From a virus (lineage: Duplodnaviria; Caudoviricetes): a DNA stretch of 50,872 nt. Each line of letters starts with the position of its first letter. Positions within the stretch are counted from its first letter, which is position 1. A program made the translations under genes and the position numbers. The stretch spans positions 1 to 50,872 of IMG/VR virus record IMGVR_UViG_3300034072_001527. One strand, given 5' to 3'. Positions 24,203-50,559 of the stretch are shown here, in pieces. Below the pieces are notes generated by a model. That model was given only the letters and a program-made list of their open reading frames with translations. It was not told where the DNA came from and searched no databases.

Positions 24203-24203
24203 G

Positions 24204-34180: not shown

Positions 34181-34215
34181 GGTGTCACCTGTCCTGTTCT
34201 GGGACTACAATCGTT

Positions 34216-34842: not shown

Positions 34843-34846
34843 GCCA

Positions 34847-34886: not shown

Positions 34887-34918
34887 GAACCGCTCCGTAA
34901 CCACCCGGAGGCGTGTTC

Positions 34919-35278: not shown

Positions 35279-35442
35279 CCCCGCGCCAGCTGCTTCGCCT
35301 TGCCGCGCGGATCGAGCACGCGCTCGAATATGTCACCGCCGCGATCTTCGGCATTGGCATCGCGCTGCTGCTGAACGTGGCGATCGACGCCGCCGTGCAG
35401 CTCGCCGCGCCAGCGCCGGCCGTGCTCGGAGCCAATCCGTGA
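35275..35442 (+). CDS. 55-aa membrane protein
   Basis: MTPRQLLRLAARIEHALEYVTAAIFGIGIALLL...; ATGA and GTGA overlaps. Confidence 0.55.
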   Translation: MTPRQLLRLAARIEHALEYVTAAIFGIGIALLLNVAIDAAVQLAAPAPAVLGANP

Positions 35443-35927
35443 CCGCGCCCGCGATCTTTGCCCATCCCGTACTTCCTCTCGACGGCCTCGACCCGGCGGA
35501 TCGCCCCACGAAATCCGCGGCCGTCGAGGGGGAGACTTTCCAAGCTTCACCGCAATACCGTCGCCTGTTTGGAATGGTCCCTCCTCACCAGGCGATGGCC
35601 CCGCCCGTCGATTGCATTCGCGACGGGCCGCCTGCTTCCCTGCCTGCAACTTGCGACCCATCGCAGGCAGGGGAGCTTTTTCTTTCGCAGGCCCTGCTTG
35701 ACGTCGCCCGGCTACGCGCGCGCCATGCCGAAAAGGGCCACACGCCCGAAGGCGATGCTGCGCACGGTTGGGTCTATTTCAAACGCATATCCGACCAGGC
35801 CTTCCGCGATGGCGTCATGGCTCGCTGCCCGGTCAAGCGCCGCAACCGCCTGATCACCGCCGTCGCCATCCTCGTGGCGCTGATCGATTGTGAAGATTTT
35901 TCCGCACAACAACGGAGCTCCGAATGA
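35439..35927 (+). CDS. Hypothetical protein
   Basis: GTG start overlapping the previous stop. Confidence 0.5.
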
Positions 35928-36136
35928 ACAATCCCATGCCTTTCAACGAGCGCGATTTGCCCTCAAGCAGCGAAGCGGTAGGGCTCAAGGAATTGCCGGA
36001 GTGGCTGCAGCGCGAGGCCGACGCGATCACTGCGCAGCGCAACCGCGACCAGCGCCTCGTCGTCGCCGCCGCGGCGGCCGTCCTCGCCGCCGGGATCCTC
36101 GCGATCCTGTGGCTCGCCGGAGTGATCGGGGCATGA
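35924..36136 (+). CDS. Small protein with C-terminal TM helix
   Basis: GGAG RBS; coupled at both ends. Confidence 0.6.
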
Positions 36137-36396
36137 GCGGTCCCGGACACAATAGCGGCGACACCGCCGCCAGCGACGATCGCCTGCGCTTGCTGATCGA
36201 GCGCATCGAACGCCTCGAAGAGGAAAAGCAGGGCATCGCCGATGATATCCGCGACGTCTATTCCGAGGCCAAGGCGGTTGGCTACGACGCCAAGATCATG
36301 CGCCAGATCGTCCGCCTGCGGAAAATGCGCCCTGACGATCGCCGCGAACAGGAAATGGTGCTCGACACCTACAAGGCCGCGTTGGGCCTCGACTGA
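36133..36396 (+). CDS. gapR: GapR/DUF2312 nucleoid-associated DNA-binding protein
   Basis: [47 protein letters not shown]...LDTYKAALG. Confidence 0.92.
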
Positions 36397-36524
36397 TGCG
36401 CCGCCGTCCGCACCGCCTCGACTGGGTAAACCTTGCCACCTGGGCGCTGATCGGCACCTGCACGCTGATCGTGTGGGGTCTGGCCGGGCTCGGCGCGGCG
36501 TGGCTGCTCGGGTGGCTGGCATGA
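36396..36524 (+). CDS. 42-aa membrane peptide
   Basis: [42 protein letters not shown]; TGATG and ATGA coupling. Confidence 0.5.
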   Translation: MRRRPHRLDWVNLATWALIGTCTLIVWGLAGLGAAWLLGWLA

Positions 36525-36754
36525 GCGCCTTCCACCGCGACGGGATCAACACCACCGAGCGCGAGATCCTCGACCTGTGGGACGCGGACCTGTCCGCCCA
36601 GGCCATCGCCCGCCGCCTCGGCCGCTCCCCGCGCTTCGTCGCCACCACGCTATCGCGCCTGCTCGAAGGCAACGAAACCCGCCTGCACGTCGCCGCGATG
36701 CGCTCCGGCAGCAACGCCCTGCTCGCCGCGATGAAGGAGGCCCGCCATGTCTGA
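36521..36754 (+). CDS. Small HTH protein
   Basis: EILDLWDADLSAQAIARRLGRS. Confidence 0.65.
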   Translation: MSAFHRDGINTTEREILDLWDADLSAQAIARRLGRSPRFVATTLSRLLEGNETRLHVAAMRSGSNALLAAMKEARHV

Positions 36755-37082
36755 CTTTATCGAAACCGGCCTGCGCTTCGGCGCCGAACGCAGCTATTTC
36801 ACCGGGCACGTCAACCTGTACATGCTCAAGCTGTCCGAGGCCGGCCGCCACGCCGCCGCGCCGATCGACTTCACGATCGACGTCCGCGACCCTGGTAAGC
36901 TCACGGCCCCCACGCTCTCGCTGACCGACTTCGAGGCGCAGCAGCTGATCGACGCGCTGTGGAGCGCCGGCCTGCGCCCCGCCGGAGCGAAGCAATCACA
37001 AGGCGCCTACGACGCACAGAGCCGCCACCTCGAGGACATGCGCGCCCTCGCCTTCCACCACGCCAAGGTCGAACGGCCATGA
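36747..37082 (+). CDS. Hypothetical protein
   Basis: AAGGAGG RBS. Confidence 0.7.
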   Translation: MSDFIETGLRFGAERSYFTGHVNLYMLKLSEAGRHAAAPIDFTIDVRDPGKLTAPTLSLTDFEAQQLIDALWSAGLRPAGAKQSQGAYDAQSRHLEDMRALAFHHAKVERP

Positions 37083-37411
37083 AGCTCGATCCCTACAAGC
37101 ATATCGGCCGCCCCGACAGCTGGGGCGCATTCGGTGACGGCGAGCACGATGAAATCGCCGACGCGGAGCGCAGGGCCCTTGCCGAGTATTTTGCCGGCCG
37201 GGTGATGCAAGCGGGCCTGCAAGGCATCCCTCACCAGGAATTCATGGTCAGTCTGATCGTGGGGGCACTGGTCGCAAACTGCGGACTGTTCATGGCTGGC
37301 CGGGGTGTCGACAATCTTTCCGATGATGCTTTCGAGCATTGGATCGGCATGGTTACTTTCTCATGGCATCAGGCCTTGGAGTGCTTTTCGCCGGGCGCTG
37401 GGAAGGCATGA
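37079..37411 (+). CDS. Hypothetical protein
   Basis: MKLDPYKHIG...; ATGA coupling. Confidence 0.55.
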   Translation: MKLDPYKHIGRPDSWGAFGDGEHDEIADAERRALAEYFAGRVMQAGLQGIPHQEFMVSLIVGALVANCGLFMAGRGVDNLSDDAFEHWIGMVTFSWHQALECFSPGAGKA

Positions 37412-37944
37412 ACCTTCACCCCTCCCATCCCGCGATCACCGCCGCGCACGTCGTCGCCGAATGCGCGCGCGAGCTCGAACAGCGCCGCCGCTTCTATCCG
37501 CGTCGGATCGAACAGGCCCGTATGAGCGAGGGCGAGGCCGCCGCCCAGCTCGCCCTGTGCGAGGCATGGCTCGAGGACGCGCGCCGGATCGAGGCGAGCG
37601 ATTACACCCCGGCGCTGCCCGCCCCGGCGCAGCATGGCCTAAGCTGGACGGCCCGCCGCCAGGGCCTGCAGCGCGAGCTCGGCTTCCGCGCCCGGATCTA
37701 CCCCGCGCGCATCGCCGAATGCCGGATGACGCAGGCCGAGGCCGCGCACCGCACCGCCTGCCTCGAGGCGCTGCTCGCGCGCTACGACGACGGCTTCGAC
37801 TGGCTGGCCAGCAACGGCCGCCGTCCGCAATTCGGCCTGGTCACGGTCGGCCCTGATATCGAACAGGCCCGCCGCGAATGGGACGAACACACCGCCGCGC
37901 TTGCCGCGGCCGCAACACCACCCCAGCAACAGGAGCTGATTTGA
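37408..37944 (+). CDS. Hypothetical protein with an internally duplicated domain
   Basis: RELEQRRRFYPRRIEQARMSEGEA and RELGFRARIYPARIAECRMTQAEA. Confidence 0.7.
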   Translation: MNLHPSHPAITAAHVVAECARELEQRRRFYPRRIEQARMSEGEAAAQLALCEAWLEDARRIEASDYTPALPAPAQHGLSWTARRQGLQRELGFRARIYPARIAECRMTQAEAAHRTACLEALLARYDDGFDWLASNGRRPQFGLVTVGPDIEQARREWDEHTAALAAAATPPQQQELI

Positions 37945-38246
37945 TGGACGAACAAGGAATGGACTTCGGGCAGGCAATCCGCCTGCTCAAGCAGGGCAAG
38001 CGCGTGGCTCGTGTAGGCTGGAATGGGAAGGGCATGTATCTTTGGCTGCTGCCCGCAGCGACCGTGAAGGCCGAGTGGTGCCGTGAAGAGCATCTGCGCG
38101 CGGTTGCCGAAGCAAACGGCGGTGAGATTGAGGCGCTCGGATCGATCCGCATGATGACCGCCGACAAGAAGGTTCTCACCGGGTGGCTGGCGTCGCAGAC
38201 GGATATGCTGGCCGAGGACTGGGTCGAGGTTTGCGAGCCGGACTGA
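37944..38246 (+). CDS. DUF2829 / Tad2-like anti-defence sponge protein
   Basis: MDFGQAIRLLKQGKRVARVGWNGKGMYL...GWLASQTDMLAEDW. Confidence 0.85.
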   Translation: MDEQGMDFGQAIRLLKQGKRVARVGWNGKGMYLWLLPAATVKAEWCREEHLRAVAEANGGEIEALGSIRMMTADKKVLTGWLASQTDMLAEDWVEVCEPD

Positions 38247-38447
38247 CACCTGTGTGATCATTTTGACGGAGCAGCCTATGGACCCATCCCGATAACCGAA
38301 CACTGTCCCGAAGCGGCGCGGGCGGGGATGACCGTCCTCTCTCTCCCCCCTCCAAGGCACCTTGCCCGCGCCGCCTCACCCGATTACCTTACCTTCGCCG
38401 CCGACAATCCGGTCGCGGCACGCTCGAGATCCGACCAGGAGCGATCA

Positions 38448-38768
38448 ATGTCGAAACCCATCCCCACCGATCCCGATATCCAGCGCACCCGCTTTGCCGA
38501 GGCGGTCGAGCTGCTCGGCGGTTTCCGCGCCACCGCGCGCCTGCTCGACGTCAGCGAGCACACCATCCGCGCCCTGGTCAAAGGCCAGCGCCGCCTGCAC
38601 GACGGCTTCCTGCGCGATATCGCCGCCGCTCTGATCACCCATGCCGACCAGTGCCGCGCGCTCGAGCGCAGGATCTCGCCCGCCTTCGCCGGCAACCTTA
38701 CCGCTGACCAGCTCGCCCGCCCGCCGCACCCCAACCGCTATGACCGGAAGGACCGGAACGATGGCTAG
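38448..38768 (+). CDS. HTH protein upstream of the integrase (possible excisionase or regulator)
   Basis: LGGFRATARLLDVSEHTIRALVKG; AGGAG RBS. Confidence 0.6.
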   Translation: MSKPIPTDPDIQRTRFAEAVELLGGFRATARLLDVSEHTIRALVKGQRRLHDGFLRDIAAALITHADQCRALERRISPAFAGNLTADQLARPPHPNRYDRKDRNDG

Positions 38769-40074
38769 CTTCCGCATCCCCTTCCTTGTCACCCGCCGCA
38801 ACAAGGACGGCAGCGCCAACTACTACTGGCAGCCCAGCAAGACGCTCGCCGACGCCGGTTGGCACGCCCGCCCGCTCGGCCGCGATGAAGCCGCCGCGAT
38901 CGACGCCGCGCGCGAGATCAACCGCCAGGTGGAACGCTGGCGCGAAGGCGAGGCCCTGCCGAAGATCCGCAGCCGGCCGCAGGACGGCACGCTCGCCGGC
39001 GCGATCGCCGATTACACCCGCACCGTGATCGAGGGCACCCGCGCCAACGGCACCCCGCGCGTCGGTGACAACACCGCGCGCACCTATCGCACCGGCCTCA
39101 AGCGGCTCGAGACATGGGGCGGCAAGTTTCCGCTCGCTTACATCACCCGCCAGCGCGTCCGCGCTCTGCGCGACGGCATGATGAAATCGGGCGTCGGCGA
39201 ACACGCGATCCACAACACGCTCAAGATGGGCCGCCAGCTGTTCGCATGGCTGATCGACGAAGGGCGATGGGAGCAGGGCAAGAACCCCTTCGAGGCGTTC
39301 GGCATGGCCGCCCCGGATCCGCGCCAGACGATATGGAGCCCGCCCGCGCGCGAGCTGATCGTCGCCACCGCCGACCGGCTCGGTTTCCCCTCGATCGCGC
39401 TCGCCGTCATGCTCGGCTATGCGATCGGCCAGCGCGAGGCTGATATCCTCGAGACGACGATCCCCCAGTGGGTCGCCCTGCCCGAACACAAGATGCAGCC
39501 CGAGGACCACGCCGTGCTCGCCGCCGCCGCGCCCGATGGCGTGCCGCGCGGGATCCGCATCCGCCAGATCAAGACCGGCGCCTGGATCGAGGTTCCCGTG
39601 GTGGGCGAGGTCCGCCGCCGGGTCGAAGCCAACATCGCCCGCGCACGCGCCGCCGGCCGCTTCGAGCTGATCCTTGATGACACCCGCGTGATCACCGATC
39701 GCCGGATGGAGAAGGGGACACAAGGAACGCTGGCGGCATACGAAGGCAAGCACGGCGCCACCCGCTTCCAGCGCGACTTCGCCGAGATCCGCGAAGCCGC
39801 CGCCGCGTCGGCCGCCGCCAATGGCGATGAGGCGCTCGCGGCCGAGATCCGCGCGCTGCAATTCCGCGACCTGCGCCGCACCTGCGTGGTGTACCTGGGC
39901 GAGCTCGGCCTCGAGGATCACCTGATCGCCGCGATAACCGGCCACGATATCGACGAGACGCGCCGGATCCTCAAGGTGTACATGCCCCGCACCACCGGCC
40001 GCGCCGCCCGCGCGATCGCACTGGTGACCGCGAGGGAAGCGAAGGAAGCCGGGAAGAAGGAGAGTAACCGATGA
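38761..40074 (+). CDS. int: Prophage tyrosine integrase
   Basis: GQREADIL (Arg I), FRDLRRT, ITGH and VY catalytic motifs; next to the att repeat. Confidence 0.92.
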   Translation: MASFRIPFLVTRRNKDGSANYYWQPSKTLADAGWHARPLGRDEAAAIDAAREINRQVERWREGEALPKIRSRPQDGTLAGAIADYTRTVIEGTRANGTPRVGDNTARTYRTGLKRLETWGGKFPLAYITRQRVRALRDGMMKSGVGEHAIHNTLKMGRQLFAWLIDEGRWEQGKNPFEAFGMAAPDPRQTIWSPPARELIVATADRLGFPSIALAVMLGYAIGQREADILETTIPQWVALPEHKMQPEDHAVLAAAAPDGVPRGIRIRQIKTGAWIEVPVVGEVRRRVEANIARARAAGRFELILDDTRVITDRRMEKGTQGTLAAYEGKHGATRFQRDFAEIREAAAASAAANGDEALAAEIRALQFRDLRRTCVVYLGELGLEDHLIAAITGHDIDETRRILKVYMPRTTGRAARAIALVTAREAKEAGKKESNR

Positions 40075-40277
40075 TCACCTACGGCACGATGGATGCAAAG
40101 CCCGGCGACCAATGCAGCAACTCGCCATGGATAGACTATTTCACCACGCCTTGCTGCTACCAGGACGTGGAGGATGGCACTACCGAATGCCCCAGTTGCG
40201 GCGCCCCGATCGAATGCCGTTATGAACAGCAGCCGGTCGCGATCTGCACCATTCGAGATCCCGAGGATGACGACTGA
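40071..40277 (+). CDS. Small Cys-rich acidic protein (zinc-ribbon-like)
   Basis: TPCC...CPSCG; AAGGAG RBS; coupled to the integrase stop. Confidence 0.55.
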   Translation: MITYGTMDAKPGDQCSNSPWIDYFTTPCCYQDVEDGTTECPSCGAPIECRYEQQPVAICTIRDPEDDD

Positions 40278-40356
40278 TCCTTCCAACAAGACCGCCTGAA
40301 ATCCTTCCAATTCACCACAATTCGCGGCAAATTCTCTAGGAAAATCAGTAACCGCC

Positions 40357-40398
40357 AAGCTTGGGAAGCTTCTGCTCTACCATTGAGCTACACCCGCA
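40357..40398. repeat. att core copy 2 (tRNA-Gly 5' fragment)
   Basis: Identical to 57..98. Confidence 0.95.
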
Positions 40399-40444
40399 TT
40401 TCAATAGCTTAGGCCATCGAAACCCCGGCAGTTTACAATGCGGT

Positions 40445-41569
40445 TTACACATCGCCCCGGAGCCGCCGGGTCAAATCACTCACAATGGCCCTGTCGTCAA
40501 CATACTTTTTCCGGATTTGATCGACGTGCTGGGGAGACCAGCCCATCCGTTCGGCGACCTCATTGTTGGTGAGATTTGCATTGGCGTGCGCGATGATGCG
40601 AGTTGCAAACGTCCCGCGAAGATCGTGCAGTCGCTTCTGGATGCGCCTTTCCTCACCAGTGATCGGATCACGTTCAGTGTGCCAGATGCCCGCCCCATTA
40701 TTGGCTCGCTTGCGTGCATCATGAAAGCTGGAATTCAAGCCATCGCCCGTCCAAGATTTTCCAAGGCTATTCACGAGCACAGTCTCCACGTTTGGCCTCC
40801 TTGGCCTCTCACGAAGGGCATCAAGCAGTTGATCGAGTTCCTGAAGCCTAGGGAGAGAGACAGTAAATCGCTTGCCCCGTGAACGCTTTGCGGCGGTCCT
40901 ACGAATACCAACATCACCGACCTCATCCCAACGCAAGGCTACCAAATCTGCGCGCCGCAAACCTGTAAGGACGGCGAGGTCGATGGCATCGCGAAGCGGC
41001 TGATCTGCAACCGCCTTAATGGCCTCCAAATCTTCAGGCAGCCAAATGACCGCCGCGCGACCCTCGGGGCGGTCGATAGTCGGGATGCCAATAGCTGGAT
41101 TGTGGATCATATGCCCTTCGAGCACAGCCCACTGGAAGAACTTCCTTAGCACCATGATCGCGATGTCCGCCGTGCGTGCGGTGTCCGACATGCTGTTGCG
41201 CCAAGCGACAATCTTGGGCCTCATTCTGAGATCATCTAGGGCCTTTAGCGGGGCCTTCCCCCACTTCTTCTCGATCCGGTCTAGAGACGCACCCCACACC
41301 TTTTGCGTGCTGACTGCTAGGCTTTTCCATTCGTTGGATGCTCGAAAGGCGGTCAGCGCCTTTCCGACGGTATCCGTGGGATCATTCACTTCCTCAGCCC
41401 GCGCGGCAGTGATCCTCGCCCAGTCGTCCGCAGTCACCCTCGGCTTTTTTCCGCCTTCCGACTTACGGACAAGCGGCCCCCCACGCCAAGCGTAGATATA
41501 CCAAGCAGGGCCACTCTTGAGGCGCTTGGGAACGATGTGAGGCCCGCCCTTCAAAGACGGTCCTTCCAC
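40445..41569 (-). CDS. int: Island tyrosine integrase
   Basis: TGLRRADL, HDLRGT, MGW and KKYV motifs; N-terminal WYIYAWRGGP. Confidence 0.93.
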   Translation of the reverse strand: MEGPSLKGGPHIVPKRLKSGPAWYIYAWRGGPLVRKSEGGKKPRVTADDWARITAARAEEVNDPTDTVGKALTAFRASNEWKSLAVSTQKVWGASLDRIEKKWGKAPLKALDDLRMRPKIVAWRNSMSDTARTADIAIMVLRKFFQWAVLEGHMIHNPAIGIPTIDRPEGRAAVIWLPEDLEAIKAVADQPLRDAIDLAVLTGLRRADLVALRWDEVGDVGIRRTAAKRSRGKRFTVSLPRLQELDQLLDALRERPRRPNVETVLVNSLGKSWTGDGLNSSFHDARKRANNGAGIWHTERDPITGEERRIQKRLHDLRGTFATRIIAHANANLTNNEVAERMGWSPQHVDQIRKKYVDDRAIVSDLTRRLRGDV

Positions 41570-41775
41570 TCGTCGAAGGCGCTCCCATCGGCCTCGACGG
41601 CCATTGTTGGCGTGAGGACTTTCAGCCCGCCATCGGGGGTGAAGCAGACCGCTCCGATCTCAATGCCACTACTTTTGACCGACCCGAGCAACCGCTTGAT
41701 CTCAGGTCTGGTCAGCTTCGTGGACGAACGCTTCCGGCGGGGTCGGGGCAATGGATTTATCGGACGAATTGGCAT
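41551..41775 (-). CDS. Small protein overlapping the integrase start (possible directionality factor)
   Basis: MPIRPINP...AFDEWKDRL; AAAGGAG RBS. Confidence 0.6.
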   Translation of the reverse strand: MPIRPINPLPRPRRKRSSTKLTRPEIKRLLGSVKSSGIEIGAVCFTPDGGLKVLTPTMAVEADGSAFDEWKDRL

Positions 41776-41834
41776 AAAACTGCTCCTTTCGCCCGAATTT
41801 AGCAGCCCCGCGGAAGAATTAAAGCGCTGATTTA

Positions 41835-41863
41835 TTGACATAAAAAGTCGGTGTTCTTAAATT
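41835..41863 (+). promoter_or_regulatory. Sigma70-type promoter for the RT gene
   Basis: TTGACA-17 bp-TAAATT. Confidence 0.75.
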
Positions 41864-41916
41864 GCAACAGTTGCCCGGATTGATGCTAGTAATCACCCAG
41901 CCTCACTCACTGTTCG

Positions 41917-43368
41917 ATGCCTGCAAAGGGGGTTGTTGAGTTGCCAATTGTTCCCGCCTCTCGCGCTTCGCACCGCGTTGCTAGGGAACTCCCGCCATAT
42001 CAGCGGTTTCAGCGTGATTTCCCGGACTTTACGGACAAGATGAATGGCCTGCGGAAAGCGTTCACGCGGGATTGCGAGCGACTGGGCGGGTTGGACCAGC
42101 GGTCACAGCGCGGTGCCATCCGGCAATTGCTGCGCAATCGACAATTCTTTCCGCTCTTCGCCTTCGACGCGCTGAAGCGGTGCGACGAGTTTGCGCACGC
42201 AAACCCCGCCGTGGTTGAGGCGCTCGCCGACCAGTTCGACCCGTTTAATCCTATCGAGGACGAGCTTGCCATAATTCGCAATGTCGCTGCCCGTGCGAGC
42301 AGAACGCGGCATGTGATGGATTTTGGACCCAAGCGGAGGATGCATCAGCAAACCATTGCCCGCATCGTCCGCCACACCCATTCCCCCTTGGACAATCAAA
42401 AGTTGTTCCATGGCGGGATGCCGACGGCGCTTAGCGCCATCGAAGCTGCCATCTCGGCTGGAGCAACGCACGCCATGGAAGTGGACTTCGTCAACTTCTA
42501 CGGCAGTGTCCGCTTTGACGGGTTGGTCGAAGTCATGCGGCCACTACCGGCATCGGTCACGTCGCATGTCATCTGGGACGAAACGTGGCGCAACGGCGAA
42601 TTGCTCGTTAACGCGGCACCATCGTCGCACCATGCTACCCCCGAGATACCGAAGGGTCTTCCACTGGGGTCCTCAACATCTCCAATCGTTGGTGAAGTGC
42701 TGATTGCTCGATTGCTGGAGGCCGCGCAGCTTCCCGACATCGTCACCTATGCCGACAATCTGTGCGTCCTAGGGCGTTCAGAGGAAGAGGTGCTTGAGCG
42801 GTTCCACACGCTCCAGACGGTTCTCAGGAACCTGCCTTTCGCTTGTATCTCGGGGCTTAGCATGGCCTCAAATGAAATTCGGAATGTGATCGAACGGGAA
42901 AAACCCAGCAAGTTCGGGATCGAGTTCGCGAACCACGAGAGCATCGTTGCGCAATGTGCGGAGGGCGTAGCCTCGATTGGTGGCTGGCGACCATCGGCGG
43001 CGAAGCTTCAGGATTTTCAGATCAGCGCGTCGGACCGTGTCTCTGTCTCGCAATTGAACCGAGCAATCCGGCAAGTGCGTAACCGAGCCAGATATTACCC
43101 AAGTTGGCCTGAAGGCGAGAAGATGGAGGCCGAGTTTGTTGCCGGACTGCTTTGCAGAAAGTTCAGGCTACAGCCCTCGCAAGCCAACCTGCGAGATGCT
43201 GTCAACGCAGTTGTGACGGCGGCTATCGCGTGGGAAGGTGAGCGACCCTTTCACGATTTCCTCGATGACCAGAACGAACCACTCGAAGCCGCAATCGAGC
43301 GCAAGCTAGAGGCAATGGCACGCATCGCTGCAACTCCACGGAGAGGATCGAGGGTTTGCCTCGACTAG
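41917..43368 (+). CDS. Divergent reverse transcriptase-family protein (YADN)
   Basis: Ordered RT motifs RTRHVMDFGPKRRMHQ, MEVDFVNFYGSV, GLPLGSSTSPIV, YADNLCVLG and IEF; start uncertain (41917 or 42040). Confidence 0.88.
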   Translation: MPAKGVVELPIVPASRASHRVARELPPYQRFQRDFPDFTDKMNGLRKAFTRDCERLGGLDQRSQRGAIRQLLRNRQFFPLFAFDALKRCDEFAHANPAVVEALADQFDPFNPIEDELAIIRNVAARASRTRHVMDFGPKRRMHQQTIARIVRHTHSPLDNQKLFHGGMPTALSAIEAAISAGATHAMEVDFVNFYGSVRFDGLVEVMRPLPASVTSHVIWDETWRNGELLVNAAPSSHHATPEIPKGLPLGSSTSPIVGEVLIARLLEAAQLPDIVTYADNLCVLGRSEEEVLERFHTLQTVLRNLPFACISGLSMASNEIRNVIEREKPSKFGIEFANHESIVAQCAEGVASIGGWRPSAAKLQDFQISASDRVSVSQLNRAIRQVRNRARYYPSWPEGEKMEAEFVAGLLCRKFRLQPSQANLRDAVNAVVTAAIAWEGERPFHDFLDDQNEPLEAAIERKLEAMARIAATPRRGSRVCLD

Positions 43369-43450
43369 CTACGCGCCGATCCCCTGCCCCCTTGCAACCC
43401 GTTGCAACTGCGACGCACAAACAGGAGGGCACGAGGTCGATCAGCGTGCG

Positions 43451-44218
43451 CTACGGCACGTAAGCCTCATCGCGGTCGGCCCTGACGCAAACCTGTTTCC
43501 AGACATTGTCGATGCTGTCACCGGCTGCAAAATCTGAGGCGAGGAAGGCGAAGTCAGGAACGTCTCCTGCTGCGATGAACCGCTGGAACCCAGAATAACC
43601 GCCGAAGCCGTTCTTGGAGTTCACCTCCCCGCAAACCACGGGTGCAGAGCCGCCAGAATAGAAGCGCGAGTTGCGGAAATCGGCGCTGCCCGGATCGCGA
43701 AGGCGAGCCTTGATCGCGTCGTGCGATCTGACGATCCACAATTGCTGCTTACCAACATCAGCGAACGGGCTTTCGTCGCTCTTGGCGACTGCCTCGGGTT
43801 CCGACTGCGCAGACGGCTTCGCCTCGGGTTTGGGTGCGGCTTGGGCCTTGGTTGCCTTCTTGCCCGCATCCGCGATCTTTTCGGCGTCAGCATCCTTCGT
43901 CTTGAACTTTGTCGGGTCAGCCGTTGCGCCGATCATGACCATGGAAATGATGGACGCAACTGCGAACTGCCACCGAGAAATCCGCTCGGTGTATGGCTTG
44001 ATAGCGCCAAGCGCGACAGCACAGAACACCAGCACAAAAACCTCATTCAAACCAAGCTGGCTTTTGTCTGAAGCCGTAGCCCCGCAGGCCAATCCGGAAA
44101 GGAACGCAATGACAGCGAACTGCCAGCGATTTAGGTGGCTGGTGTATGGTTTGATCACGCCAAGCGTCGCAGCCAGAAACGCGATGAGAAAGAACCCAGA
44201 AACCACCTGCATAGCCAT
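43451..44218 (-). CDS. Membrane protein with duplicated TM hairpin and a soluble C-terminal domain
   Basis: LGVIKPYTSHLNRWQFAV / LGAIKPYTERISRWQFAV; C-terminal LRDPGSADF...CGEVNSKNGFGGYSG. Confidence 0.8.
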   Translation of the reverse strand: MAMQVVSGFFLIAFLAATLGVIKPYTSHLNRWQFAVIAFLSGLACGATASDKSQLGLNEVFVLVFCAVALGAIKPYTERISRWQFAVASIISMVMIGATADPTKFKTKDADAEKIADAGKKATKAQAAPKPEAKPSAQSEPEAVAKSDESPFADVGKQQLWIVRSHDAIKARLRDPGSADFRNSRFYSGGSAPVVCGEVNSKNGFGGYSGFQRFIAAGDVPDFAFLASDFAAGDSIDNVWKQVCVRADRDEAYVP

Positions 44219-44236
44219 CCCCTTGATACGATTAGC

Positions 44237-44292
44237 AGACTATCGTCTACCAAGCACCAAAGGTGCTGCAAGTGCTTTGTAGCCTATCGTCT
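44237..44292. promoter_or_regulatory. Probable XRE operators AGACTATCGTCT / AGCCTATCGTCT
   Basis: Near-palindromic 12-mers at 44237 and 44281 between divergent genes; AGCACC-AAA-GGTGCT at 44253..44267. Confidence 0.5.
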
Positions 44293-44329
44293 GGTGACTG
44301 GAATTTGAGGCTGTGGTCCATCGTGCTTG

Positions 44330-44551
44330 ATGGGCCTGCGCGATAACCTTGCCGCAAATCTTCTTCGCCTGCGCCGCGAACGTGATCTGCCGCAGGATCA
44401 ATTCGCCGCTGAGATCGGCATCCACCGCACTTACCTGAACCACATCGAGAACCGGAAGCGCGCACCGACGATTGACGTTATCGAGAAGATCATGGCGGCG
44501 CTCGACGTCAGCGTGGTCGATCTGCTCGGCGATCCGCCAAGGGATCGTTAG
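44330..44551 (+). CDS. XRE HTH regulator (controller-protein-like)
   Basis: LRRERDLPQDQFAAEIGIHRTYLNHIENRKRAPTIDVIEKI. Confidence 0.88.
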   Translation: MGLRDNLAANLLRLRRERDLPQDQFAAEIGIHRTYLNHIENRKRAPTIDVIEKIMAALDVSVVDLLGDPPRDR

Positions 44552-44562
44552 GCACTCGCGGC

Positions 44563-45024
44563 TCAACCCATTAAGTGGCGCAACGCCGCGAACACATCTG
44601 GCTGCTTCGCAGCCTCCAGCATCTCAGACCGCGACAACTCCCGCGTAAGCAAGGAATGAACCCAGTCGGCGGCTGGCATCGCAGACAGGAACTGTTCCCA
44701 CCCGACGGGATCGCCGAAGCGGCGATGAACCTTGAAATGGCACGAGCGGCAGATCGGTCGTGCCGCCAGCGGGCGAGCGTATATTTCGCCGTGCCTCATG
44801 CTCCCGGCTGGTTGACCGCACACGTCGCAGGGCGCGGTCCGCGCAATCAGGCCCAGATTGCGGGCGACGGCTACCTTCTGCCAGCCGACAATTCTTTCGG
44901 CACCCGTTGCACCGTTGTAGGATCGCGGGGTGGGCCAGCCCCATCTCGGCAAGAAAGCGCCCTGAGCGATGGCAGCATCGACCGCCCGCTCGATGACAAT
45001 GTCGGCAGGCAGGTCAGGCATCAT
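44563..45024 (-). CDS. Zinc-finger/HNH-like protein
   Basis: CDVC...HGEIY...PICRSCHFKVH. Confidence 0.6.
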   Translation of the reverse strand: MMPDLPADIVIERAVDAAIAQGAFLPRWGWPTPRSYNGATGAERIVGWQKVAVARNLGLIARTAPCDVCGQPAGSMRHGEIYARPLAARPICRSCHFKVHRRFGDPVGWEQFLSAMPAADWVHSLLTRELSRSEMLEAAKQPDVFAALRHLMG

Positions 45025-45211
45025 GGCCTCCGCACATCGCTTCAATCTCGGCGCACAGGCGCTGGCCGCGCGTCAAGCCTTGTCGCACCTGCCGAGATAG
45101 GCAGTGGCAATACTCGGGCGGCTGATCGGCGCGCTGGCCCTCGACTGTGATCCCGTGGAGGTCTTCGAGCAGCATCGTGAGGCGTGCGAACAGTTCGGCT
45201 GGTTCGGTCAC
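45014..45211 (-). CDS. 65-aa hypothetical protein
   Basis: GTGA overlap with the resolvase stop; GGAGG RBS. Confidence 0.55.
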   Translation of the reverse strand: MTEPAELFARLTMLLEDLHGITVEGQRADQPPEYCHCLSRQVRQGLTRGQRLCAEIEAMCGGHDA

Positions 45212-45771
45212 GCCCGATCCTCCTTCAAGAGCCGGTATACGGACGCTCGGCTGCAATTGAGCCTAGCGGCGATCTCTGGGGGAGTAAGGCCCTGCCCCGC
45301 CAAGTCGCGCATCATGGGCAATTGTCGGCGGGCTGTAGGCACCCTGCCCTGGTATTTGCCTTCGCGCTTGGCGCGCTCGATCCCTTCGCGCTGCCGGACC
45401 AGCATCAGTTCTCGCTCGAACTGGGCGAGCGCGCCAAACATGGTCAGGACAAGTTTGCCCGTGGGCGACTGGGTGTCCATCTCTGTGCCGCCGAAGTCGA
45501 GCACCCGAAGGCCGACCTTCTTGGCTTCAAGCTGTGCGATGATCTGGAGCAGATCGGACGTTGACCGGGCGAGGCGATCAAGCCGGACAATGACGAACAC
45601 GTCGCCCTCGCGGGCAAAATCGAGAGCGGTGTTGAGTTGCTCCCGCTCAGCGACCGACGACACCTGCTCGAAAAAGACCTTGCTACAACCCATCGAACGG
45701 AGTTGGTCGATTTGCCCCTCCAGTCCAGCCTTCTGGTCGAAGGTCGAGGTCCTCGCATACCCTACTAGCAC
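45208..45771 (-). CDS. Serine recombinase (resolvase/invertase)
   Basis: VGYARTST, RLDRLARS, FERELMLVRQREG and a C-terminal HTH (SRASVYR). Confidence 0.95.
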   Translation of the reverse strand: MLVGYARTSTFDQKAGLEGQIDQLRSMGCSKVFFEQVSSVAEREQLNTALDFAREGDVFVIVRLDRLARSTSDLLQIIAQLEAKKVGLRVLDFGGTEMDTQSPTGKLVLTMFGALAQFERELMLVRQREGIERAKREGKYQGRVPTARRQLPMMRDLAGQGLTPPEIAARLNCSRASVYRLLKEDRA

Positions 45772-45781
45772 GTCACTTTCC

Positions 45782-45939
45782 TCTGATTTTCTTCATGAAA
45801 TCAGACTAGGGGAGTGTGCAGGTAGGGCTAGGGCTAAGTGGCATTTCGGCGAGAAGATCGCGCCCCTGAGGGTTCCCCCTCGGACCGCCCCCCCTCAGTA
45901 ATCAGACGAAATCAGACGGAATTGAGGTCTAGGCCTCAG
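45782..45939. promoter_or_regulatory. Probable res site
   Basis: TCTGATTT-N8-AAATCAGA inverted repeat at 45782..45805; tandem AATCAGACG at about 45900..45919; directly upstream of the resolvase. Confidence 0.55.
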
Positions 45940-46126
45940 CTAGAATACGTCCAAAAGCCTGAACCTGACCCTTGTGCGACCCGATAGCCATTGCGGGGAC
46001 CGTCCAACATGGGGAAGGCTGTGCGAGATCGGCCTTCATCCCTTTGCCACGCATATGCGCCACCAGTCCCCACTGCCCCAGCCATTCAATCTAGCCATAG
46101 CGAGAACATCGGGTATGAATGAGCTT

Positions 46127-48475
46127 ATGGCGACGACTGAGCATTTTAGAGTAAGTTCCTTCCTCAAGGACATCATAGGCCGCGACCTGGTAACCAACGA
46201 ATTCGTTGCCGTCTTTGAGTTGGTAAAGAATGCCTTCGATGCGAACGCAAAGCGCGTAGATATCGCGTTTGACCTCATCAACGACGAACTTTGGATCGTC
46301 GACAACGGTAAAGGTATGGACGAGGCGGGCATCAAGGATCGCTGGCTGTTTGTGGCCTATTCCGCAAAGGCAGATGGCTCCGAAGATAATACCGACTATC
46401 GGGACAAAATAAGGCCACAAGGCCAATTCGCTGGCAGCAAGGGCATTGGTCGCTTTTCGTGTGACACCTTAGGGGCTGAACTCGAGCTTTATTCTAAGGA
46501 AAAAGAAAGTGCGCGAGTTCAGCGGCTCGACGTGGAGTGGGCAAGGTTTGAAGAAGACAGCAAGGACCTCTTTCAAAAAATAAATGTCACCCATGAACCT
46601 GATGCCTCTTTTCCGGAGGAAGCACCTGTCAAACTTCCGGCTAAATCAGGCACCATACTGCGGATCAAGCGGCTCCGCATGGACTGGGATGCAGACGCTA
46701 TAGCAAGGTTGCGTCGTTACCTGGAAAAATTAATTGATCCCTTTGGAACTACAAAGGACACCCCGGTCTACATTTCCGTCGTAAGCGACGAACTCGAAGT
46801 CGATGAAATTGAAGAGCTGAGCGGACAGGTTGGAAACGATCTTCAAGAACTGCTCGCTGAGAAAACCACCCGAATCGTTGTCGAAATAAAAGACGATAAA
46901 ATCGAGACCGAACTCATAGATCGTGGTCGGACAATATACCGAATTTGCGAAGCAAACAGTTATCCTTCCCTGGACGCCGCAATCGTCCGCATGGAAATTT
47001 TTTATCTTAACCGAAGCGCCAAGCACACCTTTACATCTCGCATGAAGGTCCGGCCTGTTGAGTTTGGAAGCGTTTTCCTGTTCTTGAACGGCTTTCGTAT
47101 CTTTCCAATTGGGGAGGAAACGGACGACACGCTGGGGCTTAATCGGCGAAAGCAGCAGGGCACATCACGCTACTTAGGAACGCGAGACATCATGGGCCGG
47201 GTCGATGTGACGGCACCTCCCCGAATGTTTCGTGAAGCGTCCAGCCGAGATGCCGGACTGATTGAAGACGCACGCTCTCGCGAGCTATTCGAGGCTATCC
47301 ATCGAAAGGCAATCGTGAGGCTTGAACGGTATGTCGTTGGCGTAACCTGGGCCGACAAAGACGACATGTTCCGGGATGACGCAAGTGGGCTGCGCTTCGG
47401 TGAGACGAAGGGACGGGTGGCGCAAATAATTGCCAACTTGGCTGCGACCAAAGACCTTGAACTCCTCTATTTCGATCCTGAAATTGCCGAACTTGTCGAT
47501 GACGACGTAAATTCCATTGATGGAGCACTGAAGTCTCTTACCGCTATTGCCGAAAAGCAGGGTGACGAAAATTTACTCCGTCGGATCGAAGGTGCAAAGG
47601 CTCGCATTGCTCAACTCGAAAAGGCAGAGGCCGAGGCTGCACGAGCCGCAAAGGAGGCGCGAGAGGCCAAGGCGCGGGCAGACGCGCGGATCGAAAGATT
47701 AGAGCGTCAGACCAAATACCTTGCCTCGACACAAGACCTTACTGTTGAGCAAATGACGCTGCTACTTCATCAGGTCATGATCTACTCAGGCCACATAGGA
47801 GCAGCAATCGACCGCTCCCTAAAGGGCGCGCGCGTAATCATTGATGCAGCGGTCGAGATTGCCGAGCACGTCTCGGAGGAGGAGTTGGAGGAGGCTGCCG
47901 CAGCAATCCGAAGTCGAGCGAGACGCGTTGCGGACGATCTCGACTATATCCACCTCGAAAATGATCGATTGATTGCTGTCGCTCGCTTTGCATCCAACGC
48001 GCGTTTTGATCTTGAAACCGATCTCCTTGAAGGAGATGTCGTCGCCTTTCTTGACGAGTATGTTAATCAGGTGCGAGGCGGTCGGGATGCAACTTCCACC
48101 GTAATGTTCGACGCCAATGACCTTGAACTTCTTGCCAGTTTCAGGCCTGTGGACCTGGTGGTCGTTGTCGACAATTTGCTCGACAATGCGAGAAAGCATG
48201 GTGCCAGGATGATGACCATGGAGGCACGTAAGGGCGACAAAAAGGGTCGAGTTCAGGTTGCGATTTCCGATGATGGTCGGGGAATAGACGAACAGAGGGT
48301 TGATCCAGCGAGGATTTTCGAGAAGGGCTATTCTTCGACTGCCGAAGGAACGGGTCTTGGTCTGTATCACGCCAAGAAGGTTATGCAGGACATGGGGGGC
48401 GATCTGATTTTGGACCCGAAAAGAGAAGTTGGGCGAGTTGAGTTTGCGATGATCCTACCGGAGCCGAAGAAGTGA
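46127..48475 (+). CDS. MORC-like GHKL ATPase fused to a C-terminal histidine kinase
   Basis: N-terminal ELVKNAFDA, DNGKGM, GSKGIGRF; central coiled coil; C-terminal LLHQ, NLLDNA, DDGRGI, IFEKGYSS, GTGLGL. Start 46115 or 46127. Confidence 0.9.
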   Translation: MATTEHFRVSSFLKDIIGRDLVTNEFVAVFELVKNAFDANAKRVDIAFDLINDELWIVDNGKGMDEAGIKDRWLFVAYSAKADGSEDNTDYRDKIRPQGQFAGSKGIGRFSCDTLGAELELYSKEKESARVQRLDVEWARFEEDSKDLFQKINVTHEPDASFPEEAPVKLPAKSGTILRIKRLRMDWDADAIARLRRYLEKLIDPFGTTKDTPVYISVVSDELEVDEIEELSGQVGNDLQELLAEKTTRIVVEIKDDKIETELIDRGRTIYRICEANSYPSLDAAIVRMEIFYLNRSAKHTFTSRMKVRPVEFGSVFLFLNGFRIFPIGEETDDTLGLNRRKQQGTSRYLGTRDIMGRVDVTAPPRMFREASSRDAGLIEDARSRELFEAIHRKAIVRLERYVVGVTWADKDDMFRDDASGLRFGETKGRVAQIIANLAATKDLELLYFDPEIAELVDDDVNSIDGALKSLTAIAEKQGDENLLRRIEGAKARIAQLEKAEAEAARAAKEAREAKARADARIERLERQTKYLASTQDLTVEQMTLLLHQVMIYSGHIGAAIDRSLKGARVIIDAAVEIAEHVSEEELEEAAAAIRSRARRVADDLDYIHLENDRLIAVARFASNARFDLETDLLEGDVVAFLDEYVNQVRGGRDATSTVMFDANDLELLASFRPVDLVVVVDNLLDNARKHGARMMTMEARKGDKKGRVQVAISDDGRGIDEQRVDPARIFEKGYSSTAEGTGLGLYHAKKVMQDMGGDLILDPKREVGRVEFAMILPEPKK

Positions 48476-49374
48476 ACCTCACTTTCAATGTCTGCTGGAT
48501 CGAGGATCAAGCCACCGACGCATTCGTTGAAAGTGTAGAGGAAGCCGTTCGTGCGAACGGATTTGCTCCGAAGATCGAGCGGATTGCAACGCAGGAAGAG
48601 ATTGCCGAGTTCGCACAGCGTCAAGAGCAATTTTATGACTACGAGTTGATCTTATTGGACTTACAACTCGGCGCTACAAAGGGTGATGAGGTCGCCAAAT
48701 CAGTCCGGAGGCATTTTCGCTCGACCCCACTGCTTTTCTACAGCGGCGCGGACGAAGTCGATCTTCGGAAGCTAATGTATGACGCGGGCATTGAAGGGGT
48801 CTACTGCGTTCACCGGGAGGAACTGACAAACCGAGTTCGCGAGCTTGTTGGGGAGCTGTCTCCCGCCCTAAATCGCCTCAACTCGATGCGGGGGCTTGCG
48901 GCCCAAACAGTCGCAGTCTGTGATGAGCGCTTTCGAGAAATCATCATGCATGCCGCCCAAGATGCTGGGCAACGAGACGAGATTTTTCAGTCCTTGCGTG
49001 ACGGTCTCATCAAAAGTGCGCAAGAGCGCGAGCAGGAACTGAATGGCCAGACATCACTCGATGGGTTGATGCAGCTATACATACCGACAGCCGCACTTTT
49101 CCGCGAGGCGTTGAGGATTGCACGAATTGCTGGAGAAAATGATGACGACATTCTCGACTTACATAGAGCGGTAAAAAAGAATTTTTACCCGAAGCTTACA
49201 GCGCGCCGAAATACTCTATCGCACGTAATTGAAGAGCGAACCAGAACCGGATTTGTGGTCCGCACTGCCGACGGAACAGCTCTAACCCGCGACGACTTTA
49301 TTAGCTATCGAGCGGAATTCGCCATTGTCTTGCGAGATGTGACCAACTTGCACAGCCGACTGGTCCCTCAATAG
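48472..49374 (+). CDS. Response-regulator receiver-domain protein
   Basis: WIEDQ, LILLDLQL and PLLFYSG; GTGA-coupled to the kinase. Confidence 0.85.
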   Translation: MNLTFNVCWIEDQATDAFVESVEEAVRANGFAPKIERIATQEEIAEFAQRQEQFYDYELILLDLQLGATKGDEVAKSVRRHFRSTPLLFYSGADEVDLRKLMYDAGIEGVYCVHREELTNRVRELVGELSPALNRLNSMRGLAAQTVAVCDERFREIIMHAAQDAGQRDEIFQSLRDGLIKSAQEREQELNGQTSLDGLMQLYIPTAALFREALRIARIAGENDDDILDLHRAVKKNFYPKLTARRNTLSHVIEERTRTGFVVRTADGTALTRDDFISYRAEFAIVLRDVTNLHSRLVPQ

Positions 49375-50559
49375 ACCGATCAATACCTTGCCGATAGCTT
49401 CGGCGAGAAGCGGAGGAACGGCGTTGCCGATCTGGGTGTAACGCGGACAAGCGGTCTTTCTTCGTTCTCCTCCTGTTGTGTATGGTCCATAAAAGGAGAA
49501 CCAATCAGGAAAGGACTGGAGGCGAGCCAATTCTCTGACGGTAAGGGTGCGAGGGTCAGAATAGTGGATTATGTCGTCCGGTAATGTGGTCACTGTCGGG
49601 GCGGGCAGCGACTTATCTAACGGGGTGGTTGACCGTTTGCCGATCCCAAGCCGCAACCGATCTTCTGGTGAGATGCAGCGACCGCGAGGGCAGGTGGCCA
49701 GGATGGTAGCGAAGCGTCCGACCGTCTTTTCATTGTGCCTTGCCAACCGACAGTCGGTCGGCTGCCCTTCCTGCCCATCACGCATCAATGTTTGATAATT
49801 ACTGTCTGCATTTCTTGCGCGGCTGACAGCCCGGTAGCCCCTTCCTCCCCACTCTTGATCTAGAAGCGGCTGACGGTCACCAACAGCGAAGTCGGATATC
49901 GCCTCCCCGACCGAAATGAACCTACTGCCAAGACCCTTTTCTTGCAAAAAGCGCCGTCGGGACGTGCGAAGTCTGACGAGCGGATCAATGCCGGGTAGAG
50001 TTCCTTCAAGTGCTGCGATCAGAATGAACCGTGGACGCTTCTGCGGGACGCCATAGTCCGATGCCAAGAGAACGTCTGACCAGACTTCGTATCCCAAGTT
50101 TCTCAGGCTCTCCTCTGCCGCCTGATTGTATGTGCCGCCACTCGAATGGGGCATAGAGGTGAAACCGCGAACGTTCTCTAGTAAGACGAGCTTAGGCCGG
50201 ACAAGTTCAACAAACCGCAGGTAGGCATCGACCATCTTGCTGCGCGGATCATCTGGATTGCGTCGACCATTAATCGAAAAGCCTTGGCATGGCGGGCCTC
50301 CAGCGATCAGGTCGATGGTGCCATTCAATTTGCGGAGGTCAATTTCGTGCTCGCGGACAATGCAGGTGACATCATGTGGCCGCATTTCAAGCCAGGACGG
50401 CCATTGAACCCTAAACCTATCGCTATCGAGTAGATTGTTTTTGTAAGTTGAGAATGCGTCTTGATGCTGTTCGATGGCGAACTCGCAGTCAAACCCAGCG
50501 TTGTGGAGGCCGAGCGATAGCCCGCCGCAACCAGCGAAAAGATCAATGAACCTTGGCAC
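49282..50559 (-). CDS. DNA (cytosine-5)-methyltransferase
   Basis: DLFAGCGG, GGPPCQGFS, ENV, QKRPR, RELARLQSFPD and QIGNAVPP; GTG start after GAAGG. Confidence 0.96.
   Translation of the reverse strand: MPRFIDLFAGCGGLSLGLHNAGFDCEFAIEQHQDAFSTYKNNLLDSDRFRVQWPSWLEMRPHDVTCIVREHEIDLRKLNGTIDLIAGGPPCQGFSINGRRNPDDPRSKMVDAYLRFVELVRPKLVLLENVRGFTSMPHSSGGTYNQAAEESLRNLGYEVWSDVLLASDYGVPQKRPRFILIAALEGTLPGIDPLVRLRTSRRRFLQEKGLGSRFISVGEAISDFAVGDRQPLLDQEWGGRGYRAVSRARNADSNYQTLMRDGQEGQPTDCRLARHNEKTVGRFATILATCPRGRCISPEDRLRLGIGKRSTTPLDKSLPAPTVTTLPDDIIHYSDPRTLTVRELARLQSFPDWFSFYGPYTTGGERRKTACPRYTQIGNAVPPLLAEAIGKVLIGLLRDQSAVQVGHISQDNGEFRSIANKVVAG

Follow-up and report, generated by a model that had tools for sequence, protein, structure and literature searches.

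A free-standing reverse transcriptase with a conserved YADN motif, possibly defense-type cargo, in an exchangeable slot of a Sphingomonadales tRNA island

What does a free-standing reverse transcriptase (RT) do in a small mobile island that sits at a tRNA gene? The question arose from a virus record of IMG/VR (IMGVR_UViG_3300034072_001527; Duplodnaviria, Caudoviricetes), whose 50,872 bases were analyzed over their whole length and are referred to as the window below. One open reading frame (ORF) of its island codes for an RT that a preliminary description, made from the sequence alone, had called unclassified and UG/DRT-like. The RT was found to belong to a family outside the described classes of the libraries searched, to occupy a defined slot in an island backbone, and to be exchanged between backbones, whereas sibling islands carry other genes in the same slot. 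These observations led us, tentatively, to regard the RT as a repressor-linked, defense-type single-gene cargo of the island (a "moron") rather than as a part of a retroelement. The gene and its motifs were located as follows.

41917..43368, plus strand: RT of 483 amino acids (aa) (ORF call and Pfam RVT_1)
42484..42501, plus strand: motif A, DFVNFY, from residue 190 (motif scan)
42655..42684, plus strand: motif B, GLPLGSSTSP, from residue 247 (motif scan)
42748..42759, plus strand: motif C, YADN, from residue 278 (motif scan)

The protein matched Pfam RVT_1 with an E-value of 8.9e-8 (32.5 bits, cut-off 29.6), and the three motifs stood in the order given in the preliminary description. Position 41835, named there as the start, is the -35 box of a promoter-like site and not the start of the RT ORF.

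A search of 5.8 billion protein clusters yielded 24 relatives of the RT at 96-35% identity, nearly all of them metagenomic. When the family profile was searched against 1.84 billion representatives, 57 matches were obtained at E <= 1e-30, 422 at <= 1e-10, and 838 at <= 1e-3. In an alignment of 25 family rows (A1), residues D190, F191, F194, Y195, G247, G251, S255, Y278, A279, and D280 were invariant, and N281 was nearly so, with YADD occurring in P0018 only. Altogether, 39 columns of A1 were invariant, though the sequences fall to 33% identity with the window RT. Motif C was counted in all matches listed, aligned to the family profile. The form xxDN was present in 68 of 70 family members (YADN in 60, YHDN in 4, FADN in 3, and YSDN in 1; the other 2 had YADD). 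In the next (sister) clade, whose motif B is still the canonical PQG, 72 of 88 had it as well. Members of the RT family itself mostly had leucine for the glutamine of motif B (of the 52 sequences with the 12 commonest variants, 45 had Leu, 5 Gln, and 2 Met). The ratio of nonsynonymous to synonymous substitution rates (dN/dS) was 0.35 for the RT genes of loci L005 and L006 and 0.23 for those of L002 and L012. Because xxDN was almost universally kept and dN/dS was this low, YADN is, judged from the sequences, a conserved trait of a constrained gene and not a sign of decay. The homologue comparison that the preliminary description had proposed for telling a conserved motif from a decayed copy was thus decided in favor of conservation. 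A single RT homologue (L010:1432-2858) was broken into two overlapping ORFs of 117 and 379 aa, either by a frameshift or by an assembly error.

The RT family was rare. Of 401 Sphingomonadales genomes sampled, two had it (G001 and G258), and of 400 other Alphaproteobacteria genomes none did. Nothing was retrieved when the RT was compared by tblastn with 72,556 plasmids and 50,697 phage records, and scanning of viral contigs with the A1 profile did not reveal any relative. Longer, fused forms of the RT were not found by the search made, which is weak evidence of their absence.

None of the described classes in the PADLOC, NCBIfam, and Pfam libraries searched (PADLOC/NCBIfam library dates 2023 and 2026; later RT classes may be missing) includes the RT, in agreement with its earlier description as unclassified. 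PADLOC returned generic RT models with E-values of 4e-8 and 1.5e-6, and the best class model, UG37, reached only 8.7e-4 at 15 bits. None of the UG/Abi class models of PADLOC matched above noise, there was no Drt match in NCBIfam, and the NCBIfam group II maturase model TIGR04416 scored 21 bits, its cut-off being 300. A weak PADLOC match to Cas1_IIIb covered only the RT part of that model. A PDB search with the single RT sequence retrieved nothing; the A1 profile retrieved the G2L4 RT alone (E = 2.9e-4, 22.9 bits over 128 profile positions). A profile of the sister clade (alignment A3, 40 of the 93 outgroup matches P0080-P0172) retrieved the group II RT 6me0_C at 1.2e-36, another group II RT at 8.4e-24, G2L4 at 7e-21, and a Cas6-RT-Cas1 protein at 2.7e-20. 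This clade is the larger of the two, comprises group-II-like RTs of roughly 400 aa, and had no class-level match in PADLOC or NCBIfam either.

An independent approach was provided by structure prediction. The AlphaFold2 (AF2) model of the RT had a mean predicted local distance difference test score (pLDDT) of 82.6. Its best structural match was the RT of a diversity-generating retroelement (DGR bRT, 8ub7_A; Z 20.6, 303 aa, root mean square deviation (rmsd) 3.9), followed by a group II RT (Z 19.2, 341 aa, model residues 41..467), R2 (Z 17.2), retron RTs (Z about 15), the G2L4 apoenzyme (Z 14.8), DRT2 and DRT9 (Z about 14), and AbiA, AbiK, DRT6, DRT4, and Abi-P2 (Z 10-11.5). The model matched the full fingers-palm-thumb of DGR bRT and group II RT, and the Foldseek results agreed in kind. 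By profile and predicted fold rather than by a reference tree, we place the RT family as a divergent branch of the group-II-intron-like (G2L) lineage and not among the UG/Abi RTs. The label UG/DRT-like could therefore not be upheld, the nearest RTs by profile being group-II-intron-like ones such as G2L4. The conservation of the family suggests that the RT is a genuine enzyme, probably catalytically competent as a polymerase. An asparagine at the place of the second motif C aspartate can be compatible with catalysis, as in the GDN motif of some RNA-virus polymerases.

The RT was compared with the known RT systems. DGR RTs are characterized by the motif [ILV]GxxxSQ and by an Avd accessory gene, and retrons by an adjacent msr-msd non-coding RNA (ncRNA) and by VTG and NAxxH motifs. 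The window RT resembles DGR bRT in its fold and in the replacement of the motif B glutamine by a hydrophobic residue (LGSSTSP), but it has SP for SQ, different conserved neighbors, no TR/VR pair, and no Avd match. It differs from retron RTs in that VTG and NAxxH are absent from its 483 aa as judged by motif scan, in that an Rfam search of 40300..46000 gave no match at E <= 1, including no intron or retron RNA, and in that the gaps around the gene are at most 17 nt upstream and at most 41 nt downstream in most loci. TR/VR-like repeats were not found in the window, in which the only repeats were a pair of attachment (att) sites and a duplication inside the neighboring gene orf255. It is also distinguished from CRISPR-associated RTs, as no Cas domain was found in its neighbors and no CRISPR-like repeat array in the window; neither Cas1 nor Avd domains were detected in the scanned ORFs of the island and its left flank. 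In all these absences, the preliminary description proved accurate. With the UG/Abi defense RTs AbiK, Abi-P2, and DRT4, the window RT has in common that it stands alone on a mobile element, has no adjacent template RNA, and evolves fast. It differs from them in fold matches, which are lower than those to group II and DGR RTs, in the lack of a class-model match, and in its C terminus, which aligns with the group II thumb region instead of forming a separate repeat domain. Abi-P2 and several DRTs are located in prophage or satellite hotspots, according to PMC9122126. In the published work on G2L4 of Pseudomonas aeruginosa, this protein is a free-standing RT with YIDD as motif C that is active in repair, i.e. 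in microhomology-mediated end joining and translesion synthesis. G2L4 and the window RT are both free-standing without intron RNA and both have an altered motif C, and the RT fold of the latter covers RT0-7 plus the thumb as in G2L4 and group II RTs. However, motif C is YADN and not YIDD in the window RT, its motif B glutamine is replaced by leucine, its 483 aa include about 115 extra N-terminal residues, and the sequence similarity is very weak; moreover, its family is island-borne, rare, and fast-evolving, whereas G2L4 is a chromosomal repair gene.

To define the setting of the RT, its neighbors in the window were annotated.

40445..41569, minus strand: tyrosine integrase int2 (Pfam Phage_integrase, E 3.4e-7)
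41551..41841, minus strand: orf96, small gene overlapping the integrase start, its own true start uncertain (no family match)
43451..44218, minus strand: orf255, membrane-type, with internal duplication (phrog_2320, E 2.3e-19, C-terminal domain)
44327..44551, plus strand: XRE-family helix-turn-helix (HTH) protein HTH74, a backbone gene (NCBIfam RstR-family, E 2e-11)
44563..45021, minus strand: orf160, Cys4/His HNH-like zinc protein, a backbone gene (conserved pattern and weak fold match)
45014..45211, minus strand: orf64, between the recombinase and orf160 (no family match)
45208..45771, minus strand: small serine recombinase of the resolvase/invertase type, a backbone gene (Pfam Resolvase, E 1.1e-37)

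Fourteen RT loci, 2 from reference genomes and 12 from metagenomes, were compared with the window neighbors by tblastn. In all 12 loci that reach that far, orf160 was convergent on the RT (the sequences of L007 and L014 stop inside the RT gene or shortly past it), and a serine recombinase, 55-77% identical across loci, followed beyond orf160 in 11 of the 14. An ORF of 61-80 aa corresponding to orf64 was present in 11 RT loci, often with overlapping stop and start codons, e.g. in L005 and L006. The XRE HTH gene lay directly upstream of the RT in seven loci and, as in the window, between RT and orf160 in three. These linkages, i.e. the HTH and the serine recombinase-orf64-orf160 operon, had no place in the preliminary description, which had instead linked the RT to the integrase family of the window. 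The latter connection did not hold, because besides the window only one of the 14 RT loci (L008) had an int2 homologue; L001, L002, and L013 carried a DUF6538-type integrase, at tRNA-Ser in L001 and at tRNA-Ala in L013. The int2 homologues of L008, L047, L050, L051, L060, and L064 all adjoin tRNA-Gly(CCC). One sub-lineage had a 124-aa protein with an Excalibur calcium-binding domain between HTH and RT (L002:9590-9964, L012:2360-2734, and L014:1542-1916).

The neighbors were also followed independently of the RT. Compared with the 24 relatives of the RT, orf160 had 76, and it was encoded at 28 places in 24 of the 401 Sphingomonadales genomes. Wide flanks were analyzed for 20 of these places, omitting the seven weakest (L035-L040 and L044) and L017, which is the L002 locus of G001. 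Serine recombinase genes adjoined 18 of the 20, of which 15 were at least 48% identical to that of the window and three were 27-29% identical. The recombinase-orf160 backbone occurred without the RT in 16 of these 18 loci; the RT family was present in L058 and a sister-clade RT in L059. In L047, the recombinase, orf64, orf160, a gene termed X1, orf96, and int2 all pointed in one direction, toward the tRNA. From these comparisons, the backbone is read as integrase, small gene, slot, orf160, orf64, and serine recombinase plus an XRE HTH, and it defines, by sequence, a family of Sphingomonadales islands. A partner gene specific to the RT was not found. As candidates for this role, orf160, orf64, and the recombinase were rejected, since they occur without the RT in those 16 loci, and the HTH as an RT-specific controller was rejected, since it is also present in islands with X1 or a second gene, X2. 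Equally, an RT segment inverted by the serine recombinase was discarded because the orientation of RT and recombinase was the same in 11 of 11 loci.

The occupants of the slot in the sibling islands were informative. X1 (411-488 aa) lay between orf160 and the HTH in L047, L050, L054, and L060, and remnants of it were seen in L052 and L061. Its N-terminal winged HTH matched a Phage_rep_O-type domain weakly (Pfam E 0.0038), PHROG families annotated as replication initiation were retrieved (phrog_5810 at 1.6e-5 and phrog_678 at 9.9e-5), and its Atlas neighbors at 0.95 were Phage_rep_O clusters. Three of the four X1 genes held three tandem iterons of 21-22 nt with internal dyad symmetry in the part coding for a low-complexity linker.

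L050:4174-4234: X1 iterons
L047:9955-10020: X1 iterons
L054:9941-10003: X1 iterons

In lambda, the initiator gene O likewise contains the iterons of ori. From several weak but concordant signs, we read X1 as a putative lambda-O-like initiator with the origin inside its gene. X2 (456-480 aa) occupied the slot in L049, L051, L057, and L064; it had a conserved YAKT motif, no iterons, and no family, the sole lead being an Atlas value of 0.80 to Phage_CRI, and it is possibly an initiator of the rolling-circle type. Comparison of X1, X2, and orf160 with plasmids gave one partial match, none, and one partial match, respectively, none of which was informative. In L053, beside a distant recombinase-orf160 pair, the slot contained a Shedu SduA gene (4988-6229, minus strand), in L046 an HNH endonuclease, and in the remaining loci other genes or nothing; L045 and L048 had the backbone with an empty slot. 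L059 carried its sister-clade RT (9613-11076) after orf160, in the position of X1 and in the orientation of the operon, and in L001 a PycTM (Pycsar effector) domain protein (12469-13122, minus strand) was inserted between RT and orf160. RT and X1 or X2 were never found together: none of 17 RT loci had X1 or X2, and none of eight complete X loci had the RT. X1 and X2 resemble the RT in taking the same slot of the same backbone; in contrast, their strand is the opposite one, that of the recombinase-to-integrase operon, and the lambda-O-type modules have no sequence or fold relation to the RT. Neither iterons nor origin-like repeats were found near the RT. The preliminary description had placed the RT in the slot of a missing replication gene. 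The sibling islands with a candidate lambda-O-like initiator and its iterons lend comparative support to that placement; a replication role of the RT itself is retained as a rival explanation.

The RT did not always share the history of its backbone. Pairwise identities of RT, orf160, and recombinase were correlated over nine loci (Mantel r 0.76-0.86, p <= 4e-4), in part owing to two close pairs. Nevertheless, L004 and L005 were 47% identical in the RT versus 80% in orf160 and 77% in the recombinase, and synonymous divergence (dS) between L005 and L006 was 0.07 for the RT, 0.31 for orf160, and 1.72 for the recombinase. A sharp mosaic boundary thus separates the RT (10001-11452) and the recombinase (12352-12918), 1 kb apart in one island. 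Contigs from other samples broke off in homology close to the module. In one, X4, 96% identity to 41570..43424 with the RT gene was followed by unlike DNA; another, of 7.1 kb, matched 40370..46018 at ~95% and diverged just past the recombinase gene. These discordances and homology breaks show that the RT is a cassette passed from one backbone to another.

The sites that may control the RT are the following.

41835..41863, plus strand: promoter-like TTGACA-17-TAAATT of the RT (10 of 12 consensus matches)
41862..41874: palindrome TTGCAAC-A-GTTGC over the -10 box of the RT (pattern count)
43392..43407: palindrome TTGCAAC-CC-GTTGCAA just past the RT stop, near the homology break of the X4 contig (pattern count)
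50624..50639: third palindrome, upstream of a methylase gene (pattern count)

The promoter claimed in the preliminary description is present, and the pair of integrase and overlapping small ORF is divergent from the RT, as stated there; the promoter is the sole site of its kind in 41500..45300, with 1.0 +/- 1.0 expected by chance, so that its occurrence is not above chance level. By contrast, the pattern TTGCAAC-N(1-3)-GTTGC occurred at three places in the window, versus 0.03 expected, and each of them was inside the island. Similar palindromes were present in L001, L004-L006, L008, and L013 upstream of RT, orf160/orf64, ATPase, and methylase genes, and the element is probably the operator of an island-wide regulator. 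A palindrome was also seen inside the recombinase ORF, over rare codons for the residues A-T-G-C. The two palindromes bracketing the RT were rejected as recombination partners or template ends, as their spacers differ (1 versus 2 nt) and the downstream copy is not conserved elsewhere. In the seven loci with the HTH upstream, its stop codon was at most 17 nt from the RT start or overlapped it, and the stops of RT and orf160 were 0-41 nt apart. Therefore, a dedicated ncRNA would not fit into this arrangement.

Free-standing RTs on mobile elements are usually defense genes, and lambda rexAB is the model of a prophage "moron". Our tentative choice of a defense-type cargo was made because the RT is antisense to the long operon, coupled to the HTH, fast-evolving, and exchanged between backbones, because its slot is sometimes empty, and because defense-type genes are found nearby; C5 methylase genes lay near the module in four of the 14 RT loci and in L058, and the PycTM gene of L001 and the Shedu gene of L053 are counted here too. 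According to this reading, transcription of the RT would run against the recombinase-to-integrase operon. Its translation would be coupled to that of the repressor-like HTH or, in the window, it would have its own promoter with the palindrome over the -10 box. Like a prophage moron, the RT would be expressed while the island is integrated and quiescent, and it may protect host and island from phages or rival elements through DNA synthesis. Several points weigh against this proposal. There is neither an experimental nor a homology link to any tested defense RT, and the repressor role of the HTH is presumed. The RT family is confined to one slot (12 of 12 loci with enough flank, plus the window and L058), a narrower distribution than is usual for defense cargo. 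The best-supported alternative occupant of this slot is a replication initiator and not a defense gene, RT and X1/X2 never co-occur (0 of 17), and the sister-clade RT of L059 has the position and orientation of X1. As the arrangement with the HTH upstream offers no space for an ncRNA, no template has been identified, and activity with the asparagine of YADN is unproven, since it departs from the F/YxDD held critical.

A less likely alternative raised by the same slot evidence is that the RT stands in, as a non-homologous replication module, for X1 or X2; once the island has been excised, the RT would start or perform its replication, e.g. by synthesizing a DNA primer or a first strand with an island transcript as template. 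The particular version in which the RT is the replication enzyme or initiator of the island, starting from RNA instead of from a lambda-O- or rolling-circle-type initiator, appears slightly less probable still. Such a role would agree with the initiator signs and in-gene iterons of X1, with the Atlas lead and YAKT motif of X2, with the mutual exclusion of RT and X1/X2 (0 of 17 and 0 of 8), with the second RT clade on the position and strand of X1 in L059, and with the restriction of the RT family to the slot; in addition, family scans revealed no other recognizable replication gene in the window island, and RT islands have kept the recombinase, orf64, and orf160. However, the RT lies opposite in strand to X1 and X2 and is coupled to the HTH instead of to the recombinase-to-integrase operon, iterons and origin-like repeats are missing near it, and the empty slots of L045 and L048 imply that the slot gene is dispensable for upkeep of the backbone. 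Cassettes at one insertion point exclude each other whatever their function, and we know of no bacterial DNA element that replicates with an RT. A junction of attL and attR from an excised circle was not seen in the metagenome contigs, a weak objection because contigs cannot show its absence. Rather improbable, in our judgement, is a domesticated G2L-type polymerase that acts in DNA repair or recombination after the model of G2L4, possibly for survival of breaks caused by excision or by the HNH-like orf160. G2L4 was the sole solved protein found by the family profile (fold Z 14.8), it is described as a free-standing RT that acts in repair and whose motif C is changed to YIDD, and the window RT family always adjoins the HNH-like gene. 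Yet the similarity to G2L4 is weak (22.9 bits, 128 profile positions), orf160 also occurs where the RT is missing, the RT family is carried by islands and is rare (2 of 401 Sphingomonadales and 0 of 400 other Alphaproteobacteria genomes), and its fast evolution and exchange between backbones fit conflict genes better than housekeeping repair. It is very improbable that the RT is what remains of a group II intron, DGR, or retron, dead as a catalyst or in decay. The G2L4 work states that all RTs have F/YxDD with both motif C aspartates critical for Mg2+ binding, and the second of these is asparagine here; the motif B glutamine is lost as well, and the L010 homologue is split into two ORFs. In a remnant, one would not expect xxDN in 68 of 70 family and 72 of 88 next-clade members, dN/dS of 0.23-0.35, or 39 invariant columns down to 33% identity. 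The motif A aspartate, the first motif C aspartate, and the steric-gate tyrosine are all kept, and no intron, retron, or TR/VR remains were found.

The remaining features concern the integration of the island and its other genes.

24..97, minus strand: tRNA-Gly(CCC), the only tRNA found by ARAGORN and the integration target common to prophage and island
about 40358..40400: left att copy, a repeat of the tRNA 5' half (repeat comparison)
about 50748..50790: right att copy, the tRNA 5' half plus native upstream DNA (repeat comparison)
45974..50697: second cargo, consisting of a double-GHKL ATPase (833 aa), a receiver protein (300 aa), and a C5 cytosine methylase (471 aa) (domain scans)

The 5' half of tRNA-Gly(CCC) was repeated over 41 nt in two distal copies, which also have about 120 nt of tRNA-upstream DNA in common at 81% identity, and the GC content dropped from 0.67-0.70 to 0.50-0.61 beyond 40 kb. 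By these att repeats and the GC drop, the window comprises two tandem elements at a single tRNA-Gly(CCC), a prophage (about 98..40357) and an island of 10.4 kb. Both elements duplicate the 5' half of the tRNA and not the usual 3' half. In three other metagenomes, contigs had the tRNA 3' half directly before 40357, and the integrase end of the island abutted the whole tRNA-Gly with no prophage between; the 7.1-kb contig came from one of these samples and X4 from another. The small tRNA-integrated island of the preliminary description was thereby confirmed.

Among the island genes, orf96 is possibly an excisionase, and its C-terminal half is conserved beside int2 in L008 and L047. The duplication in orf255 comprises a hydrophobic segment (43959..44045 and 44112..44198, 67% identical). 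Homologues of orf255 were present in islands with and without the RT, the latter being L045, L048, L050, and L059; by this distribution, orf255 is an accessory gene of the island and not specific to the RT. In orf160, residues C65, C68, H77, E79, Y81, C91, H95, and H99 were invariant, giving the pattern CxxC-x8-HxExY-x9-CxxCH-x3-H. Its AF2 model (pLDDT 96.4) found a weak best match in the Gme HNH nickase (Z 4.4, rmsd 2.9 over 79 aa); HNH nucleases made up four of the eight chains at Z >= 2. It also matched the endonuclease family phrog_2340 (E 2e-4); Foldseek gave nothing at E <= 0.001, and the best Pfam match (E 0.0028) was not HNH. Prediction of an RT-orf160 complex scored 0.00 against a mark of 0.32, which speaks neither for nor against binding. 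The ATPase-receiver-methylase block of the second cargo was conserved in L005 only (L005:16574-21183; 78%, 56%, and 67% identity), and in another sample it was replaced by other DNA after 46018. Its N-terminal ATPase resembled restriction enzymes of the BbrUII/HgiDII family (NCBIfam E 7.4e-21), with no nuclease evident.

In the libraries and literature searched, no description of the RT family, its xxDN trait, or the backbone was found; the supplementary RT lists of PMC9226505 and PMC8632793 may hold unclassified members. Searches for YADN in RTs, RT-recombinase links, satellites with RTs, and Sphingomonas tRNA-Gly islands with an RT returned nothing relevant. PMC2602772 makes no mention of a resolvase, recombinase, or invertase, and PMC8632793 and PMC9226505 mention recombinase or resolvase in unrelated passages only. 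The recombinase-orf64-HNH-like operon and the putative island-wide palindromic operator were likewise matched by no named family or paper in the searches made.

In the RT family and its larger sister clade, the second, "essential" aspartate of motif C is conserved as asparagine. Here, a free-standing RT is found in a precisely defined slot of a mobile island in which the alternatives appear to be replication initiators, so that defense versus replication is directly testable. If the RT did replicate the island, it would be the basis of the first RT-dependent replicon among bacterial DNA elements, and a function would be at hand for the wider clade of G2L-like RTs with xxDN instead of xxDD.

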